DNA from: a virus
Lineage: Duplodnaviria > Heunggongvirae > Uroviricota > Caudoviricetes
DNA: 27,028 bases
Reading direction: 5' to 3' (one strand)
IMG/VR virus record: IMGVR_UViG_2579778989_000013
The position numbers were made by a program, and so were the translations under genes. The notes under the pieces are model-generated. The model searched no databases and was not told the DNA's origin. It worked only from the letters and a program-made list of their open reading frames with translations. This document shows positions 1,602 to 21,362 of the stretch, piece by piece; positions within the stretch are counted from its first letter, which is position 1, and each line of letters opens with the position of its first letter.

Positions 1602-1773
1602 CTCAACAAAACTCTGATAATGCTGCGCAGCCACCCGCACCATCACGGTATGCCGTGGTGTGGTTACCTTCTTTTTCGTCAAGAAACTGGTCGAGGATTT
1701 CAGGCGCAGAAGCGCCCGCAGCAATCAGCGCCAGAACGACCGCTGATAAACCATAGCGGAATTTCCTGCTCAT
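1602..1773 (-). pseudogene. truncated SAR-endolysin (phage lysozyme) N-terminal fragment, about 56 codons
   Basis: ATG at 1773 lies 4 nt after the holin stop. Translation MSRKFRYGLSAVVLALIAAGASAPEILDQFLDEKEGNHTTAYRDGAG matches the signal-anchor-release N-terminus of pinholin-associated endolysins, then diverges (GCAALSEFC) and stops. The catalytic domain is absent. Confidence 0.6.
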
Positions 1774-1777
1774 CAGC

Positions 1778-1993
1778 TTACTCTCCCCGCGCCGCCTTAC
1801 GCCGGTCCTCTTTGATTTTGAAATACAGGTTAGTCAGGTACGTCAGCAGCCCAAACAGCAGACTCCCCAGCACGCCTATTGCCGCCCACTGAGACGGGGA
1901 AACCCTGTCCAGCAACTGCAGGAACCAGTAGCCCGTTCCCACCGCTGACGTGGTGTATGACACACCTGTTGTGATTTTTTCCATCTGGTACAT
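1778..1993 (-). CDS. class II pinholin (phage 21 S21-like), 71 aa with dual-start motif MYQM
   Basis: Translation [71 protein letters not shown] has the same length and architecture as S21 (two TMDs, Met1/Met4 dual start, charged C-terminus). Lies inside track ORF 1778..2047. Confidence 0.8.
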
Positions 1994-2069
1994 ACCCCGT
2001 CTCCCGCAATCCGGAAGCTCACAACAATATAAAGACCACCGGCACACACCGATGGTCCCTTGCGCATGC

Positions 2070-2315
2070 TTACATCATCATGTCGCTGTCAGGTGTAGGT
2101 TCACCGCCATCTGAAGCACTCCCGTCACCCGCGATACCTTCCGGCTCAGGAACCGCTGGTACGCCCAGCAGCTCATCCAGAATGGCATCCACTTCTGCAT
2201 CAAGACGCGACTCAAGGTTCTGGCGGAGTTTCTGTTTCAGTGCGCTCCGGACTTCTTCAGAGCGCAGGACTTCCTTCACTGCCTCAGCAGTGACCAGGGA
2301 TGTGATTTCTGACAT
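2070..2315 (-). CDS. hypothetical acidic protein (81 aa) between nanS-p and the holin
   Basis: In-frame ATG within track ORF 2070..2477, translation [30 protein letters not shown]... Same orientation as the late operon; no recognisable motif; weak RBS. Confidence 0.4.
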
Positions 2316-2340
2316 GGGATTTTCTCGCTGAAAGGGGTTG

Positions 2341-2523
2341 TTAAGGAGTAACGGGTTCTTCGGGCTTGCTTCCGGCTGACTGACTGGCGCTGATTTTCTC
2401 AGCGGCCCTTTTATCAATCTGCCTGCACCAGAAATCGCGCACAGCCCTGTACCCACCCGAAAGAAGATACAGCACACAGACCGCCGTACAGAAGTACAGC
2501 ATCACCTGATGAATAAATGTCAT
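2341..2523 (-). CDS. hypothetical small membrane protein (60 aa)
   Basis: Track ORF with a hydrophobic stretch VMLYFCTAVCVLYLLSGG (one predicted TM helix); positioned in the late operon. Confidence 0.35.
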   Translation of the reverse strand: MTFIHQVMLYFCTAVCVLYLLSGGYRAVRDFWCRQIDKRAAEKISASQSAGSKPEEPVTP

Positions 2524-2619
2524 AATTTCTTACCGTTATGGTTGACAATGAGAATTGTTTTCATTTAAAAACCAATGTACGAAAGCATCTTTTCTTTACA
2601 TTCTCCATTGGGATTACCT

Positions 2620-2656
2620 CCGCCAGCTTCCATTCCTGCCGCTGGCGGCTTTTTTT
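2620..2656 (+). terminator. intrinsic-terminator-like hairpin with T-tract, plus-strand orientation
   Basis: ccgccagc-ttccattcctgc-cgctggcgg followed by cttttttt; a TTGACA -35-like hexamer lies at about 2542-2547 upstream. Confidence 0.35.
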
Positions 2657-2661
2657 AGCAA

Positions 2662-4572
2662 TTATGCGGCTGCTCCAGCTTTGTTTGCTTTAACTTCCAC
2701 CGTATCAATAAGTACAGGGTAGGTTTCTGCACTACCTGTAATATCCGTAATGACAAACCTGTTGAGTCCATTAGCAGTATTGGCCCATTTCACCAGGTCA
2801 AACGCCTGTCCATCCACACCATCAAGCACCGGAGTAACATTAATGCTGTTACTGCCCTTAAATTTAAATGCAAGCGTATGCCAGTCATGGTCGAATGCGC
2901 CAAACGTGCCAAGTTCTTTTTGTTGATTAACTGTATGATGGTATGCAACATTAATACTGGCTTTATCTGTCTGGACAAAGAAAGAACTCAGATGGCCTTC
3001 ACCACCCTCACCCGGCCATTCCGCTATTCGCCAGTACAAACCAAAGGCATACTTGTTTCTGGTTGTCTCAAGATTGACGTTTTCGGGGATTTTAAACCGG
3101 ACAGCAATTTCTCCGCCTTTTTCCAGTAAAAGTTTTGCCTTGTCTGCAGCAATATCACAGTACATTGACCAGGATTTCGCGCTGTTATTTTTCTCAATTC
3201 GCAGAGCTTTATTGCCGCTGTCATCAACCAGTGTGCGCCTGCCATACACACCGTCCCAGCCATAGGGTTTCAGCTGATTGTCTGTAGCTTTTTTGGCATC
3301 GTAAAAAATTACAGACTCTGAGGTGGTAACCGGTCTGTCTGGAACAACCACCCCGGCAGTACCATTAACAAACGCAGAAGACTTACCCGCGCAGCTCAGA
3401 ATCGCCGTTGCCAGACGGTCGGAAATAATCCCACGGCGAGCCCATGAACTGAAATGGCTCGCCCTGTCCTGTGACGTCCAGGTGGCTGAGCTGTCACGCC
3501 ATTTCGAACCGTAATAACCGATACCCGGAATGTCCGGGTCTTCTTCCGGTTTGTTCGTCGGCACATTCACCCCGTTCTCATCGGTCATGAACGGTACGAA
3601 ATGGATATTCTTTTCCGTTTTATTTTTATAGCTGCCGTACACCGTCTGGTACGTGGATTCGTTCTTCTGCTTCCAGAAATACGTCGTGTCCCCGCATATC
3701 CAGGGAACACCGCCAGCAGAGCCACCGACGCACTGGCCTGCCATATCCGCCAGGTCTGCACGGAATTTATCAACCAGCGCACCAAACTGTGCGGCATGAT
3801 TTGCCGGCGTACCGCCAAAATCAAATTCCCCCTGCATCCACACCACGGCAAACAGCACATTTTTCGGGTTCTTCTCCAGTGCCGCTTTTGTTCGACCGAT
3901 AAGGTCCTTATACAGCGGCTTGTCCACACCCCAGCGGGTTGAATTCTCCGAGGCGCCACTCGCGTCACTGTATGTGCCATCAGCTCCGGTGGTGAACGCT
4001 GAACCACCACGACAGCACGGAACCAGCAGAATGCCCGCATTCGCCGGTATAAACGGCAGCAGTTTTTTGGCGATATGCAGCCCCTGCCCCACGGTTCCGT
4101 ACTGCCCCTTTGACAGGTCCGCTTTCGGATGGTTAAGACGGCTCATGTCCTGCACATCATGCAGACAATGGTCCGCCGGAATGATGTCGTTATATTTGCA
4201 TGCTGCACCGCCCGGTGTCACCGTACTGCGACGCGCTAACTGTTTAATACGTGGATCAGGGCTGTCGAATGTATCCGGTAATGGCAGTCCCTCACCGTAT
4301 GACATACCATTGGACTGACCAGCAAGCGCGATCACATAGTAATATTCTGGCGCAACAGAAGGCGCTGAGGTCGTCGGACGGTTGCCTGGCTCCTCTGGTG
4401 ATGAGATGCTCCCCTCACTCACAACTGGCTGGATGAACTCCGCACCATAACCAGCTGTCGAAATCAGCGCACTACCATAAGGCTGCCACCCTTCCTTCAG
4501 TTTTTGAGTTATTCGTTTCGCAAGGTCTGACGGCGACGCCGCCCTGACAACATCATAGTGTTTAAATGCCAT
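2662..4572 (-). CDS. nanS: prophage 9-O-acetyl sialate esterase NanS-p-like protein (DUF1737 N-terminus plus SGNH/GQSN esterase domain), 636 aa
   Basis: Track ORF with RBS GGAGGA before the ATG. N-terminus MAFKHYDVVRAASPSDLAKRITQKLKEGWQPYGS resembles DUF1737; the motif VIALAGQSNGMSYG is the GQSN esterase signature. Size and position (between Q and the holin) match nanS-p genes of Stx-type prophages. Confidence 0.8.
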   Translation of the reverse strand: MAFKHYDVVRAASPSDLAKRITQKLKEGWQPYGSALISTAGYGAEFIQPVVSEGSISSPEEPGNRPTTSAPSVAPEYYYVIALAGQSNGMSYGEGLPLPDTFDSPDPRIKQLARRSTVTPGGAACKYNDIIPADHCLHDVQDMSRLNHPKADLSKGQYGTVGQGLHIAKKLLPFIPANAGILLVPCCRGGSAFTTGADGTYSDASGASENSTRWGVDKPLYKDLIGRTKAALEKNPKNVLFAVVWMQGEFDFGGTPANHAAQFGALVDKFRADLADMAGQCVGGSAGGVPWICGDTTYFWKQKNESTYQTVYGSYKNKTEKNIHFVPFMTDENGVNVPTNKPEEDPDIPGIGYYGSKWRDSSATWTSQDRASHFSSWARRGIISDRLATAILSCAGKSSAFVNGTAGVVVPDRPVTTSESVIFYDAKKATDNQLKPYGWDGVYGRRTLVDDSGNKALRIEKNNSAKSWSMYCDIAADKAKLLLEKGGEIAVRFKIPENVNLETTRNKYAFGLYWRIAEWPGEGGEGHLSSFFVQTDKASINVAYHHTVNQQKELGTFGAFDHDWHTLAFKFKGSNSINVTPVLDGVDGQAFDLVKWANTANGLNRFVITDITGSAETYPVLIDTVEVKANKAGAAA

Positions 4573-4765
4573 GAATCCTCCCGGCCGGGATAATATTGTG
4601 AGTAAAATAAGGAGCGGGCTGAAGTCCGGAAGTTACAGGACAATGGCAGAAGGGAGACTACAGCCCGCAATTCGAAAAAGGTCGCGCAGTTGCGCAGAGT
4701 GATTACTATAGGGTATTATTCGCCAGCTGAAATATTACTTCACGTTTCATTGTTTATTCCTTGCC

Positions 4766-4794
4766 GCCCGCGTCTCCCAGCGCGGGCTTTTTTG
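4766..4794 (+). terminator. intrinsic terminator hairpin, plus-strand orientation, in the Q-nanS intergenic region
   Basis: gcccgcg-tctcccag-cgcgggc followed by ttttttg; a second hairpin agcccctc-cgga-gaggggct lies at 4805-4824. Confidence 0.4.
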
Positions 4795-5055
4795 TCCATA
4801 AGAAAGCCCCTCCGGAGAGGGGCTGGAGAGTGGCGCTATGTGCCATTGCATGGTGCCGGGTGCCTCCCGGTGAGTTCAGCCCGGTGCCACTAAACCCGCG
4901 TCATTCTCGTTTTGATAATCAGAGATTATACCGTCACCAGTCGCCCCTCCGCTCAGGGGGATTCACCATGCAGTTTTTTTCTAACAAATTCTCATCCGGG
5001 CAGACAACATTCAACTGACTTAATTGTGAGGTATGTAACATTCCTGTTGAACGGA

Positions 5056-5088
5056 TACAAAAAAAGCCAGCCACCAGGGGAGGCTGGC
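5056..5088 (-). terminator. intrinsic terminator on the minus strand, candidate tR' of the late short transcript
   Basis: Minus-strand RNA would read gccagcc-ucccc(u)ggu-ggcuggc followed by uuuuuuugu. Confidence 0.55.
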
Positions 5089-5265
5089 AAACTCGTAGAG
5101 CAAAATGCTGTTACGCAAACTTCGTTACAGGGTTATCCTGCAATACTTAAAATATACAATATTTAGAAAACTAATAGTGCCACATGAGATTTTTAAGATT
5201 TTGTTATTAATTGCGGTCGTACCTTCCTTTCTGTGTACTTTCCGTATAGCTCACAGGATTCTGGG

Positions 5266-5293
5266 TACAAAAAAACCCGCGCATCGGCGGGTT
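5266..5293 (-). terminator. intrinsic terminator on the minus strand immediately downstream of Q
   Basis: Minus-strand hairpin aacccgc-cgaugc-gcggguu followed by uuuuuuug, about 45 nt after the Q stop. Confidence 0.55.
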
Positions 5294-5338
5294 CGGCTGC
5301 GTGGCAATGTAACCACTCTTATCATGATATGCAGATTT

Positions 5339-5773
5339 TTACGATCGTAAACTATTTTTTCGCTGATAAAATACAGAGCTTCTCCCTCCCGGCAATTCAC
5401 GCTCAACATACCGATCCATCTCAAGCCTCACTCCCAGCATCATCAGCATGCCTTCAACAATCCCCTCCGCTTTGTGAAGGCGTTTACCTATACAGGTGTC
5501 AGAGCACCCATGTTTCCGTGCCAGCGCCATGAACGTCTCCCCCAACACGTAGTAATCAACCAGCAAGTCATGCAGATCGCGATTGTTCCGGTAAAGGCGG
5601 GCTATGCACCCGCATATCACCATCGCATCATCGTCACAGCACTGTGGACGTGATTTTACTTTTTCGGGGATCAGTCCCTTAAATCCGGCAGCAATGGGCG
5701 ACCATGTAACATCCTCATAGTTATTTACCGCCCATGCCCCCCAGCGCTCAAGAACCTGCCGGATATCACGCAT
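5339..5773 (-). CDS. Q: late-gene antiterminator Q (phage 82-type Q family), 144 aa
   Basis: Translation [60 protein letters not shown]... with a Cys-rich zinc-binding core, as I recall for Q82-family proteins. Lies immediately after rusA as in DLP12/Stx-phage nin-Q modules. Internal start inside track ORF 5339..5872. Confidence 0.75.
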
Positions 5774-5960
5774 CAGTATCTTTACCCCATCCGCGATGAA
5801 CCATAAGGACGCCATTGACGACGGCGTGCTTTTTCGCATCTTTATCATCAATGTATTTTCTGACTGTAGCACGATTGCAGTTCAGTATTCTGGCGACTTC
5901 TGTCTGATTTCCCCTGGTGCAGATCAGTAATTCAGGTATCGTTTGAATTTTAGCATTCAT
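5766..5960 (-). CDS. small helix-turn-helix protein (64 aa), overlaps rusA stop (1 nt) and Q start (8 nt)
   Basis: Translation [44 protein letters not shown]; HTH-like segment [19 protein letters not shown]; track ORF 5766..5963. Confidence 0.45.
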
Positions 5961-6322
5961 CAAATGTTCTCCAGTTCGGTGATTTTTATCCCCACTCTAC
6001 CGCCAGGCACTTTCACGCCGCGAATTACGCGAATGTCATCGAATTGCTCGTCGTCTTCCGCAAATCCGGCGTGGATAAGAGAGTCGAGTAAACCTTTCAG
6101 GATGTTATCGAGGTCGCGACGGCGGGAATCTGGTGGTTCAGCAATAATTGTGATGCGAAGTCGTGATTTAGTGAAAATGTCTAATCTGAGTTGCCGGATG
6201 ATTTGCTGTACGTCTTTTCGGTATTTCTGGCCTTTATCGCTGATGTAGTACTGGCTTCCCCGTCTTCGCCAGTAGGTATTCACCGTCGGCGGCCAGGGAA
6301 GCACAAACTCATATTCATTCAT
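5960..6322 (-). CDS. rusA: Holliday-junction resolvase RusA
   Basis: Translation MNEYEFVLPWPPTVNTYWRRRG...RRRDLDNILKGLLDSL matches RusA signature motifs (LPWPPS/TxN, RRRDLDN). ATGA overlap with the upstream YbcO-like gene. Confidence 0.9.
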   Translation of the reverse strand: MNEYEFVLPWPPTVNTYWRRRGSQYYISDKGQKYRKDVQQIIRQLRLDIFTKSRLRITIIAEPPDSRRRDLDNILKGLLDSLIHAGFAEDDEQFDDIRVIRGVKVPGGRVGIKITELENI

Positions 6323-7285: not shown

Positions 7286-7951
7286 TCAGAATTCAAATTG
7301 TCTTGCCCGCAGGCTTTTCAGCATTGGCATGGCCCGCTGGATAACGGAACTTGACATGTCGAGACGTGTTACCTCCCTTAGTAGCGCGTCTCTGTTCTTC
7401 GTCACCATGTAGATGGTCTCAAACGCAATGTCATACAGCTTGTTCGTGTATGAGGAGTTCAGCTCTTTCATAATGGGATACAGGTGTTTGCTGAGGTCCT
7501 GGGCTTTTTCCATCCAGAGCTGCATGTAGCAAAGGAGGATGATTTCTTCGGCTGTGAATTGTGGCTGAATCTGCGGCTGCTGTTCGGTTGGTGCTGTTTT
7601 TCCCTGGCTGAAATAGCAGTCTTCCAGTTTTTCGAATACCTCCCACGCCCGATCGGTTTCGAGCATTTTTGCGTGACGGGCTGCGCCGCGTTCTGTCCAG
7701 AGGATGAGGGAGCGGGCATTTTTACCAACTAACCCGATTGTTTCGGGTCTGTTCTTAAACTCGCGTAATTCGTTTTTTTCAATTTTAAAGTAATGCTTTC
7801 CGGGCATGAATCGCGTCGTGTTGTTCAGAAAGTTATCAGAAATGTTTTTGATTTTTGTTCCGTAAAGGTGAGCCAACAGTTCAGTAGTAATTACGGGGAT
7901 CTGGTTATAGGTAACAGGGGAAAGGTTTTCGACAGAAATTTGAACAGCCAT
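7286..7951 (-). CDS. ORF6N/KilA-N-like domain protein (antirepressor-like), 221 aa
   Basis: N-terminus PVITTELLAHLYG...FMPGKHYFKIEKNELREFK...LWTERGAARHAKMLETDRAWEVFEKLE follows the ORF6N pattern; RBS GAGGT. Confidence 0.6.
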   Translation of the reverse strand: MAVQISVENLSPVTYNQIPVITTELLAHLYGTKIKNISDNFLNNTTRFMPGKHYFKIEKNELREFKNRPETIGLVGKNARSLILWTERGAARHAKMLETDRAWEVFEKLEDCYFSQGKTAPTEQQPQIQPQFTAEEIILLCYMQLWMEKAQDLSKHLYPIMKELNSSYTNKLYDIAFETIYMVTKNRDALLREVTRLDMSSSVIQRAMPMLKSLRARQFEF

Positions 7952-8112
7952 AATGACCTCGCGTTTCGATAATTTTTACCTCGCCACCGTCAGGTGCTAA
8001 TCATCGTGGTGGCGAACTGTGCGGGGTTAGCACTACCGGTCGAAACATCCGGCGAGCCTTTCGGCTCCCCCACACAGCCCGCCATAAATCGCGAATGTGA
8101 CTGTGCTTAGCG

Positions 8113-8136
8113 CATAAAAAAACCGCCAGCGCGGTT
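8113..8136 (-). terminator. intrinsic terminator on the minus strand
   Basis: Minus-strand hairpin aaccgc-gcug-gcgguu followed by uuuuuuuaug. Confidence 0.5.
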
Positions 8137-8293
8137 ATGCACCGTTTCGATATCCGGGGTGCTAATCCCGACGCCAGGTTTTGCTGGCGCGTGAGGAATA
8201 TAGCCCCGAACACGCGACGTTGTCAAACTGATGGCATTGCAGATCCCTACGCAATGTAACACTATGTGTTATACATTAATAACGGAACAAAAA

Positions 8294-9916: not shown

Positions 9917-10072
9917 TTACTCCTCAGGTTCGTAAGCTGTGAAGACAGCAACCTCCGTCTGACCGGTTCGGATTCGTACCTCGCAGAGGTCTTTCCTCGT
10001 TACCAGTGCCGTCACTACGACGGTAATACAGATGACGATCAGGGCGACTAACATCGCCTTTTGCTGCTTCAT
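9917..10072 (-). CDS. hok: Hok/Gef-family type I toxin (51 aa)
   Basis: Translation MKQQKAMLVALIVICITVVVTALVTRKDLCEVRIRTGQTEVAVFTAYEPEE closely matches the HokD/RelF sequence as I recall it. An in-frame upstream ATG at 10129 gives a Mok-like leader (track ORF 9917..10129). Fold-back hairpins lie in the leader at about 10190-10230. Confidence 0.85.
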   Translation of the reverse strand: MKQQKAMLVALIVICITVVVTALVTRKDLCEVRIRTGQTEVAVFTAYEPEE

Positions 10073-10317
10073 AGCCTGCTTCTCCTTGCCTTTCGGCGCG
10101 TAAGAGGCTAACCTACATGTGTCTAGCATGAAATTGGCCTCAGATTAATGTTAGGCGTCTTGCAGGACGCGTAATGTTAACTGGGGCTTTTCTCTGTCTG
10201 CCTTACGGTGGCATGCCCGAGGCAGACAGCCTCAAGCACCCGCAGCAATTCTACTTAACTCTCGCTTTACCGCAAACCGTTTTTACCCGATATGGGAATT
10301 CCCATATCGTAATGAAT

Positions 10318-20892: not shown

Positions 20893-20975
20893 CGAGTAAT
20901 AAAATACCCCTTCCATATCTGTAACAGACAAGCCGAAATAAAACCGCATTAATTATCAATCACGGAAAAATCAAA

Positions 20976-21362
20976 ATGAAAGAACTTGCGCAAAATGAAA
21001 TATTTTCCGAAACCAGTCCTGATGCAATAAATGAACTCAAAGAAATTGCAGAACGCATCAGTAAAATATGCAAAGAATACAAAATCGACTTTGTATTTTC
21101 TTTTTCAGTGCTTACAGAAGTTGGAAATAACGAATATAAGGACAGTCGTTTTGTTTTATGTGGGTTAAATGGCAAAACACCAAGCCCATATATTCATGCT
21201 GCACGTGAAGTTGTCAGAAGCAACATTGGAGTACAACAAATCCATACACTTGCACAGGCTCTTGAGTTTGCAAGAGAAAATTCTGAGTGCGACTGCCCTG
21301 AATGCCAGCACGAAAAGGGAAAAACAACTCACAAAACAGCAAACCAGGCAACCTTCCACTGA
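20976..21362 (+). CDS. hypothetical protein (128 aa) with C-terminal CxC-PxC motif
   Basis: Track ORF; motif ECDCPECQHEKGK suggests a small zinc-binding module. Confidence 0.5.
   Translation: MKELAQNEIFSETSPDAINELKEIAERISKICKEYKIDFVFSFSVLTEVGNNEYKDSRFVLCGLNGKTPSPYIHAAREVVRSNIGVQQIHTLAQALEFARENSECDCPECQHEKGKTTHKTANQATFH

Follow-up and report, generated by a model that had tools for sequence, protein, structure and literature searches.

A probable 933W-type late-gene leader without tRNA or Shiga-toxin cargo in a defective lambdoid prophage of Escherichia coli

In the annotated record of phage 933W (AF125520), the antiterminator gene Q is followed, in this order, by the late promoter pR', a qut site, two possible rho-independent terminators, pT, the tRNA genes ileZ-argN-argO, a third terminator, stx2AB and L0105, the NanS-p gene. 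Transcription of the corresponding region has been mapped in EHEC Sakai using dRNA-seq, Term-seq, RLM-RACE and an rne-ts strain (Sy et al. 2020, PMC7547250), with a primary pR' start near Q and a 3' end located 258 nt downstream at the terminator tR'. [quoted passage not shown] This end between the hairpins is a processing site rather than a promoter start, because RLM-RACE recovers it without TAP and because the long form accumulates in rne-ts cells. Cleavage at GU/AUU, at position +173, releases the stable, Hfq-binding StxS_S, which activates rpoS in EHEC, and StxS has been found in non-toxigenic phages as well (PMC7547250).

The site downstream of pR' has been described by Tree et al. (2014) as an insertion site for morons, situated between convergent small-RNA genes. 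STnc100 is known from downstream of stx2B (PMC12370729) and has been described as a relative of PasD which adjoins esterase genes. The RNAs EcOnc08 and EcOnc21 are antisense, measure about 271 nt on northern blots and are tabulated together with EcOnc42 (Tree et al. 2014), which Sy et al. placed 3' of stx1AB (PMC7547250). The antiterminators of such phages have been divided by Ebright's group into families that include the Q21 family (PF06530) and the Q82 family (PF06323) (PMC9388147), and a preprint from that group words the PF06530 family as 'Q21/Q933W'.

The window analysed here is a stretch of 27,028 nucleotides from a virus of the class Caudoviricetes (IMG/VR record IMGVR_UViG_2579778989_000013), and the locus of interest is the gap of 765/766 bp at positions 4573-5338, located between an antiterminator gene and an esterase gene which are both encoded on the minus strand. 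According to our analysis, this is very likely the leader that regulates the late genes of a lambdoid E. coli prophage, which is 933W-like (Traversvirus-type), carries the Q933 allele and is devoid of tRNA or Shiga-toxin cargo. It has the layout of a Q-dependent cassette, with a promoter directly 3' of Q, 258 nt upstream of the end of tR', and with two terminators, t1 and tR', placed before the late genes. A toxin-less arrangement of the 933W type is already known and ordinary, and the RNAs of the leader belong to known small-RNA genes.

The antiterminator gene (5339-5773, minus strand) encodes a protein of 144 amino acids. PF06530 is the sole family reported for this protein in a Pfam search at E <= 0.001, with 170 bits against a cut-off of 26 and with profile positions 1-118 of 118 covered, and PF06323 of the Q82 family is not matched in that search. 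Alignment with 933W Q reveals identity in 142 of 144 residues (99%), and a phmmer search against the PDB matches residues 8-86 to the Q21 structures 6P18 and 6JNX (E 1.3e-7). On these grounds the gene is assigned to the Q21 family, as the Q933 allele, and not to the Q82 family. The first-pass annotation of this DNA had located the 144-aa minus-strand ORF correctly but had typed it as Q82, an identity that is ruled out by the match to PF06530 alone together with the 142/144 identity to 933W Q. Placement of pR' by the properties of the phage 82 promoter (initial AAA, an extended -10-like element, GCC at +15-17 and U at +25; PMC5001585) was also tried, and neither candidate site fits well, because the Q of the window is not of the Q82 family.

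Homology of the window to 933W, Sakai Sp5, the Stx1 phage and phi296 runs from Q to position 5060 without gaps. For these four relatives as well as for Nil3 it ends just past the U-tract of tR' (in the shared '...CCGT', about 5051) and restarts at about 5041 ('AATGTTA.AT.C.TCACAATT'), in a segment that is located 3' of stxB in the stx-bearing relatives. The junction between the Q/pR'/tR' block and the STnc100/nanS-p block is thus formed by about 9 window-specific bases (5042-5050), at a place where the relatives hold cargo ('moron') DNA: 473 bp with three tRNA genes in phi296, Nil3, TL-2011a and Lahn2, 1494 bp with stx1AB in the Stx1 phage, and about 1.8 kb with tRNAs and stx2AB in 933W and Sp5. 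ARAGORN finds no tRNA in the whole window. Stx1A/B and Stx2A/B give no tblastn match in the leader (the best E in the window is 0.12 and lies elsewhere), and the tRNA/stx cargo DNA of 933W, the Stx1 phage and phi296 gives no blastn match there at word size 7. Taken with Rfam at E <= 1, these searches detect no remnant of a tRNA or a toxin gene in the leader. Stx-converting phages have stxA and stxB between Q/tR' and nanS-p; in the window, the tRNA/stxAB position is vacant between homologous flanks. The first-pass annotation had reported no tRNA-like cloverleaf, had judged the gap too short for stxA plus stxB and the toxin slot to be empty, and had regarded the DNA as an stx-negative relative of Stx-converting phages, and all of this is borne out; the leader also holds none of the tRNA or toxin-gene remnants that it had listed as contrary evidence.

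A 301-bp probe spanning the vacant junction is found contiguous in 113 of 5426 complete E. coli genomes. The contiguous vacant form is present in no record of the phage collection, where the seven best matches all carry the tRNA block. It is possible, though somewhat unlikely in our view, that the vacancy is secondary, an Stx- or tRNA-carrying ancestor having lost its cargo by recombination between the flanking modules. Loss of stx from prophages has been discussed (bioRxiv 10.64898/2026.05.13.724894), this prophage has at least one other large deletion, and the near identity of its Q, pR', StxS and nanS-p to those of Stx2a/Stx1 phages would suit such a history. However, neither the tRNA and stx genes nor their flanks have left a remnant, vacancy is common, being seen in the 113 genomes, and the boundaries coincide with the module boundaries of every relative, as would be expected for mosaic exchange either way. 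In the cargo-bearing relatives, the sequence after tR' corresponds to a 99-bp fragment which PHANOTATE calls 'DNA methyltransferase' (phi296 L001 3303-3401; 933W 20958-21080), and this fragment is absent from the window. Because it directly follows tR' in the relatives, the tRNA module seems to have come with the gene fragment.

The first late ORF downstream of the leader (2662-4572, minus strand) encodes 636 amino acids and is preceded by the Shine-Dalgarno sequence GGAGG (4581-4577). Its product contains DUF1737, SASA and DUF6645 domains and is 74% identical to 933W L0105, with residues 1-390 almost identical; its copy in a prophage of E. coli O104:H4 is annotated by PGAP as 'SASA family carbohydrate esterase'. 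This domain architecture and the similarity to L0105 agree with the NanS-p-like esterase proposed in the first-pass annotation, and the product is predicted to be a NanS-p sialate O-acetylesterase. Further downstream, the class II holin gene S (1778-1993, minus strand; PF04971, 111.8 bits) has its equivalent in a 216-bp holin gene of that O104:H4 prophage. The next ORF (1603-1773, minus strand) is an endolysin gene which is cut off at a deletion junction at position 1633, its 56 aa including 47 native codons.

Comparison with the O104:H4 prophage defines this deletion. Positions 1633-6000 of the window are 99.7% identical to it and positions 44-1633 match its tail-fibre end, while 11,546 bp of that prophage are missing at the junction. 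With this DNA the prophage has lost the remainder of the endolysin gene, together with Rz, a gene for an LPS heptose-phosphate phosphatase, the two terminase genes, the portal and an N4-gp56-type capsid gene, and the endolysin stub has become fused to the DUF6682/tail-fibre end. Of the lysis genes noted at first pass, only the holin is therefore complete; the endolysin retains 47 native codons and Rz has gone with the deletion. The prophage is defective and cannot make virions, so that selection on its late switch may be relaxed. A reading of the late region as a decaying remnant without current function, in a prophage unable to make virions or to lyse properly, would be in keeping with a deletion that takes most of the endolysin, Rz, the terminases, the portal and the capsid gene. 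It appears improbable, however, since Q, pR', t1, tR', StxS, STnc100, nanS-p and the holin are all intact and 97-100% identical to those of functional phages, and since StxS and STnc100-type RNAs act in lysogens independently of virions (PMC7547250; Tree 2014).

A consensus scan of positions 4300-5900 gives a single sigma-70-like match on the minus strand, TTTACG-16-TATCAT (5351-5324), whose -35 element lies within the last codons of Q. The 'pR' putative late promoter' of AF125520 (20666-20693) maps exactly to these positions, and the element is 100% identical in the six relatives aligned. As 933W and the window can be aligned gap-free from within Q through the whole of the second terminator, with 97% identity over the last 301 bp, the pR', qut and two terminators of 933W map to 5351-5324, 5310-5303, 5291-5269 and 5088-5060, respectively; alignment of the leader with 933W, which the first-pass annotation had proposed as a check, thus finds all four at the same offsets. 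Over six phages and prophages the region from pR' to tR' is 98% identical, and the promoter, the initial transcribed region and the stem of t1 are invariant. The initial transcribed region (5300-5312, minus strand) contains a -10-like TGgTTACATT (+3 to +12) and the qut sequence ACATTGCC (5310-5303; AF125520 20707-20714), and the hexamers TTACAT/TACATT with the preceding TG are unchanged in the six relatives. [quoted passage not shown]

The start of the pR' transcript was transferred by homology from Sakai, whose Sp5 is 95.8% identical to the window over 841 bp without gaps; the transfer includes an inferred 142-bp offset between Sakai genome versions and places +1 at 5317. With this start, GUAUU falls at 5146-5142 (+173 being 5145) and +258 falls at 5060 in the U-tract, so that two independent landmarks fit. 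Because the 933W annotation maps there and the Sakai start aligns without gaps, pR' can be placed over the end of Q, upstream of both hairpins, with transcription starting at about 5317. The first-pass annotation had expected the late promoter between the terminators, at about 5090-5265, and had named a promoter elsewhere as the finding that would speak against its view; the 933W annotation, the scan and the start mapping in Sakai all put pR' outside this interval, at 5351-5324. Its layout, which lets the early operon end past Q at the hairpin 5294-5266, puts the promoter within 5090-5265 and takes the second hairpin alone as tR', is very improbable. The putative -35 and -10 of the Stx1 phage record AP005153 do map to 5189-5183 and 5163-5158, and an extended-10-like TGTATATT occurs at 5158-5151, but no promoter is detected on the minus strand between the hairpins by the consensus scan, the primary start in Sakai is 258 nt from tR' and the 933W record has pR' at the end of Q.

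Scanning of positions 4300-5900 for terminators yields 7 terminator-like sites in 1.6 kb, compared to 1.5 +/- 1.4 in shuffled sequences. The first intrinsic terminator-like hairpin, t1 (5266-5294, minus strand; -14.8 kcal/mol, z -2.6), spans +24 to +52 of the pR' transcript. It has the sequence GAACCCGC-CGAUGC-GCGGGUUU followed by a U-rich stretch, and is equivalent to AF125520 20726-20748, annotated as a possible rho-independent terminator. The second, tR' (5059-5088, minus strand; -17.3 kcal/mol, z -4.35), consists of a GCCAGCC...GGCUGGC hairpin followed by U7 and forms the 3' end of StxS. It is equivalent to the 933W terminator at 20929-20957, and the Term-seq 3' end of Sakai maps here. The stems of t1 and tR' do not differ among six related phages and prophages, and variation is limited to two loop bases of tR'. 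Two minus-strand intrinsic terminators had already been recognised at first pass, and both hairpins with their U-tracts, at 5294-5266 and 5088-5059, are conserved. It may be added that t1 is canonical and only 24-52 nt from the pR' start, yet the 258-nt StxS_L is the species detected in Sakai.

The interval between the two hairpins, which both lie downstream of pR', makes up the body of stxS. By gap-free alignment with Sp5, and with +1 inferred at 5317, the 258-nt transcript from pR' to tR', StxS_L, would be encoded by positions 5060-5317 (minus strand), which we assign as the StxS small RNA gene. GUAUU occurs at +172 to +176 of StxS_L (5142-5146, minus strand) and the U-tract ends at +258; both the motif and its position match the RNase E site described in PMC7547250, and a cut after +173 (5145) would give an StxS_S of 5144-5060. 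The 86 nt at the 3' end of StxS differ from Sp5 in 2 terminator-loop bases only, and the fold of StxS_S has a z of -3.25. The StxS unit is present in 686 genomes. Expression of StxS, its binding to Hfq and activation of rpoS may be regarded as candidate functions in this host. Rfam also returns 'Qrr' for the region, at 23 bits and far below the gathering score, a match which arises because StxS_S has the shape of a small RNA plus terminator; the matches to snoZ13 (21 bits) and anti-hemB (19 bits) are likewise far below their gathering scores, and all three identities were rejected.

Beyond the vacant junction, a gene for a small RNA of the STnc100 family (4794-5000, minus strand) is located in sense orientation to the late operon. 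It matches RF02076 over model positions 1-206 of 206 with 168.7 bits, against a gathering score of 47 (E 8.8e-40), and has its own terminator hairpin at 4824-4805. A conserved CACAAT (5028-5023) is possibly its -10 element. Sp5, the Stx1 phage and phi296 have the STnc100 element in the corresponding place, and the sense Hfq peak EcOnc05 of Sakai maps inside it, at 4940-4815.

The opposite strand probably carries a region of convergent, antisense RNA (4629-4793, plus strand). A plus-strand terminator at 4766-4793 (-16.9 kcal/mol, z -4.0) abuts STnc100, and two Hfq-CRAC peaks from Sakai Sp4 map to the region, EcOnc08 at 4720-4792 (70/73 identical) and EcOnc21 at 4629-4714 (77/86 identical). Candidate plus-strand promoters are TTGCGC-18-TATTAT (4690-4719) and ATGCCA-17-GATAAT (4566-4594). 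A plus-strand RNA of about 271 nt that ended at 4793 would overlap the start codon of nanS-p. The region sits at the position occupied by AsxR in Sp5, where AsxR itself scores 88 bits. An AsxR/AgvB homologue on the plus strand is ruled out, as Rfam gives no match to RF02703 or RF02702 in 4300-5900 at E <= 1 and the EcOnc08/21 type is matched instead; with the AsxR/AgvB class the window shares only the position and the convergent orientation.

A more speculative proposal, which we consider unlikely, is that the plus-strand RNA is the counterpart of EcOnc08/21/42 and lies antisense across the ribosome-binding site and start codon of nanS-p, possibly as a prophage-encoded regulator of the esterase. 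It would then represent a second, longer type of convergent RNA at the AsxR/AgvB position, and the toxin-less leader would be a self-contained regulatory module of three RNAs instead of an empty expression slot. The leader thus holds a pair of known late-strand RNA genes, to which an RNA gene of the opposite strand can probably be added. Its earlier description as non-coding holds for proteins but fails for RNA, given the STnc100 and StxS genes, and, with known small-RNA genes throughout, the leader is not a plain or empty spacer.

The late switch might work as follows. [quoted passage not shown] Without Q, the polymerase would halt at t1 (+24 to +52) or at tR' (+258). The 258-nt product would be StxS_L, from which RNase E, cutting at +173 as it does in the near-identical Sakai sequence, would generate the Hfq-binding StxS_S. 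Upon induction, Q made from the early operon would load onto the paused polymerase and might narrow its RNA exit channel in the manner of Q21. The polymerase modified in this way could then pass t1, tR' and the STnc100 terminator and proceed into nanS-p, DUF1378, DUF826 and the holin gene. The interval between tR' and STnc100 would serve as a boundary of recombination modules, which is filled with ileZ-argN-argO and/or stxAB in relatives and is empty here.

These observations show that a prophage can carry the Q933 allele, pR' and stxS while lacking a toxin gene, and even while being defective. As the vacant junction is carried by 113 of 5426 genomes, markers based on Q933 or pR' alone do not signal a toxin phage. 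The host keeps small-RNA genes of the StxS, STnc100 and EcOnc08/21 types, and core genes, for example rpoS, may be among the targets of these. PGAP leaves the 766-bp stretch blank despite its two late-strand RNA genes and the likely antisense one, which invites misreading.

Some features elsewhere in the window were also recorded. At 8005-8203 (minus strand), Rfam gives gathering-level matches to C4 antisense RNA (75 bits), isrK (74 bits) and the c4 target a1b1 (47 bits), just upstream of an ORF6N/P22_AR antirepressor-like gene (7286-7951); together these form an immI-like antirepressor control module of the P1/Gifsy type. A sok antitoxin RNA (10067-10241, minus strand; 117 bits) has its counterpart in the O104:H4 prophage, where a hokD/sok locus is annotated and Doc- and RelE/ParE-type toxin genes lie nearby. 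Plus-strand frames at 3-620 translate into collagen-like Gly-Pro repeats; this stretch corresponds to a tail-fibre gene which the O104:H4 prophage has on the minus strand and which here runs off the end of the window.

Among the known systems, the best match to the window is a non-Stx prophage of E. coli O104:H4 2011C-3493/FDAARGOS_349 (NC_018658, 2.546-2.549 Mb), from the outbreak lineage, which is 99.7% identical over 4300-5900 and has the same vacant junction; PGAP annotates nothing between its Q and the esterase. The O104:H4 prophage has kept its full lysis cassette and head genes, whereas the window bears the 11.5-kb deletion. The tRNA-only, stx-negative phages phi296, TL-2011a, Lahn2 and Nil3 are 95.8% identical to the window on both sides of the slot, and differ from it by the 473 bp with ileZ(Met-CAT)-argN-argO in their slot. 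In the 933W late region (AF125520), Q (142/144) and the gap-free pR'-tR' segment (97%) are shared with the window and are likewise followed by STnc100 and nanS-p. Unlike 933W, the window lacks about 1.8 kb comprising the methyltransferase-gene fragment, pT, the three tRNA genes, the third terminator and stx2AB, and the segment 3' of the slot is only about 75% identical between the two.

The RNA genes of the leader can be compared in the same way. StxS of EHEC Sakai resembles that of the window in being a 258-nt pR'-tR' unit which lies 3' of a 144-aa Q and has the RNase E motif at +173; in contrast to Sakai, the window has no stx1B target in cis. The pairs of convergent RNAs described by Tree et al. 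(2014), namely EcOnc27/AsxR in Sp5 and EcOnc05/EcOnc08-21 in Sp4, show the arrangement seen in the window, where a sense RNA of the STnc100 type abuts an antisense RNA, each has its own terminator, and the pair is situated directly upstream of nanS-p. The antisense partner in the window is of the type found in Sp4 and Sp15 (EcOnc08/21/42), as opposed to the AsxR/AgvB type of 54-60 nt.
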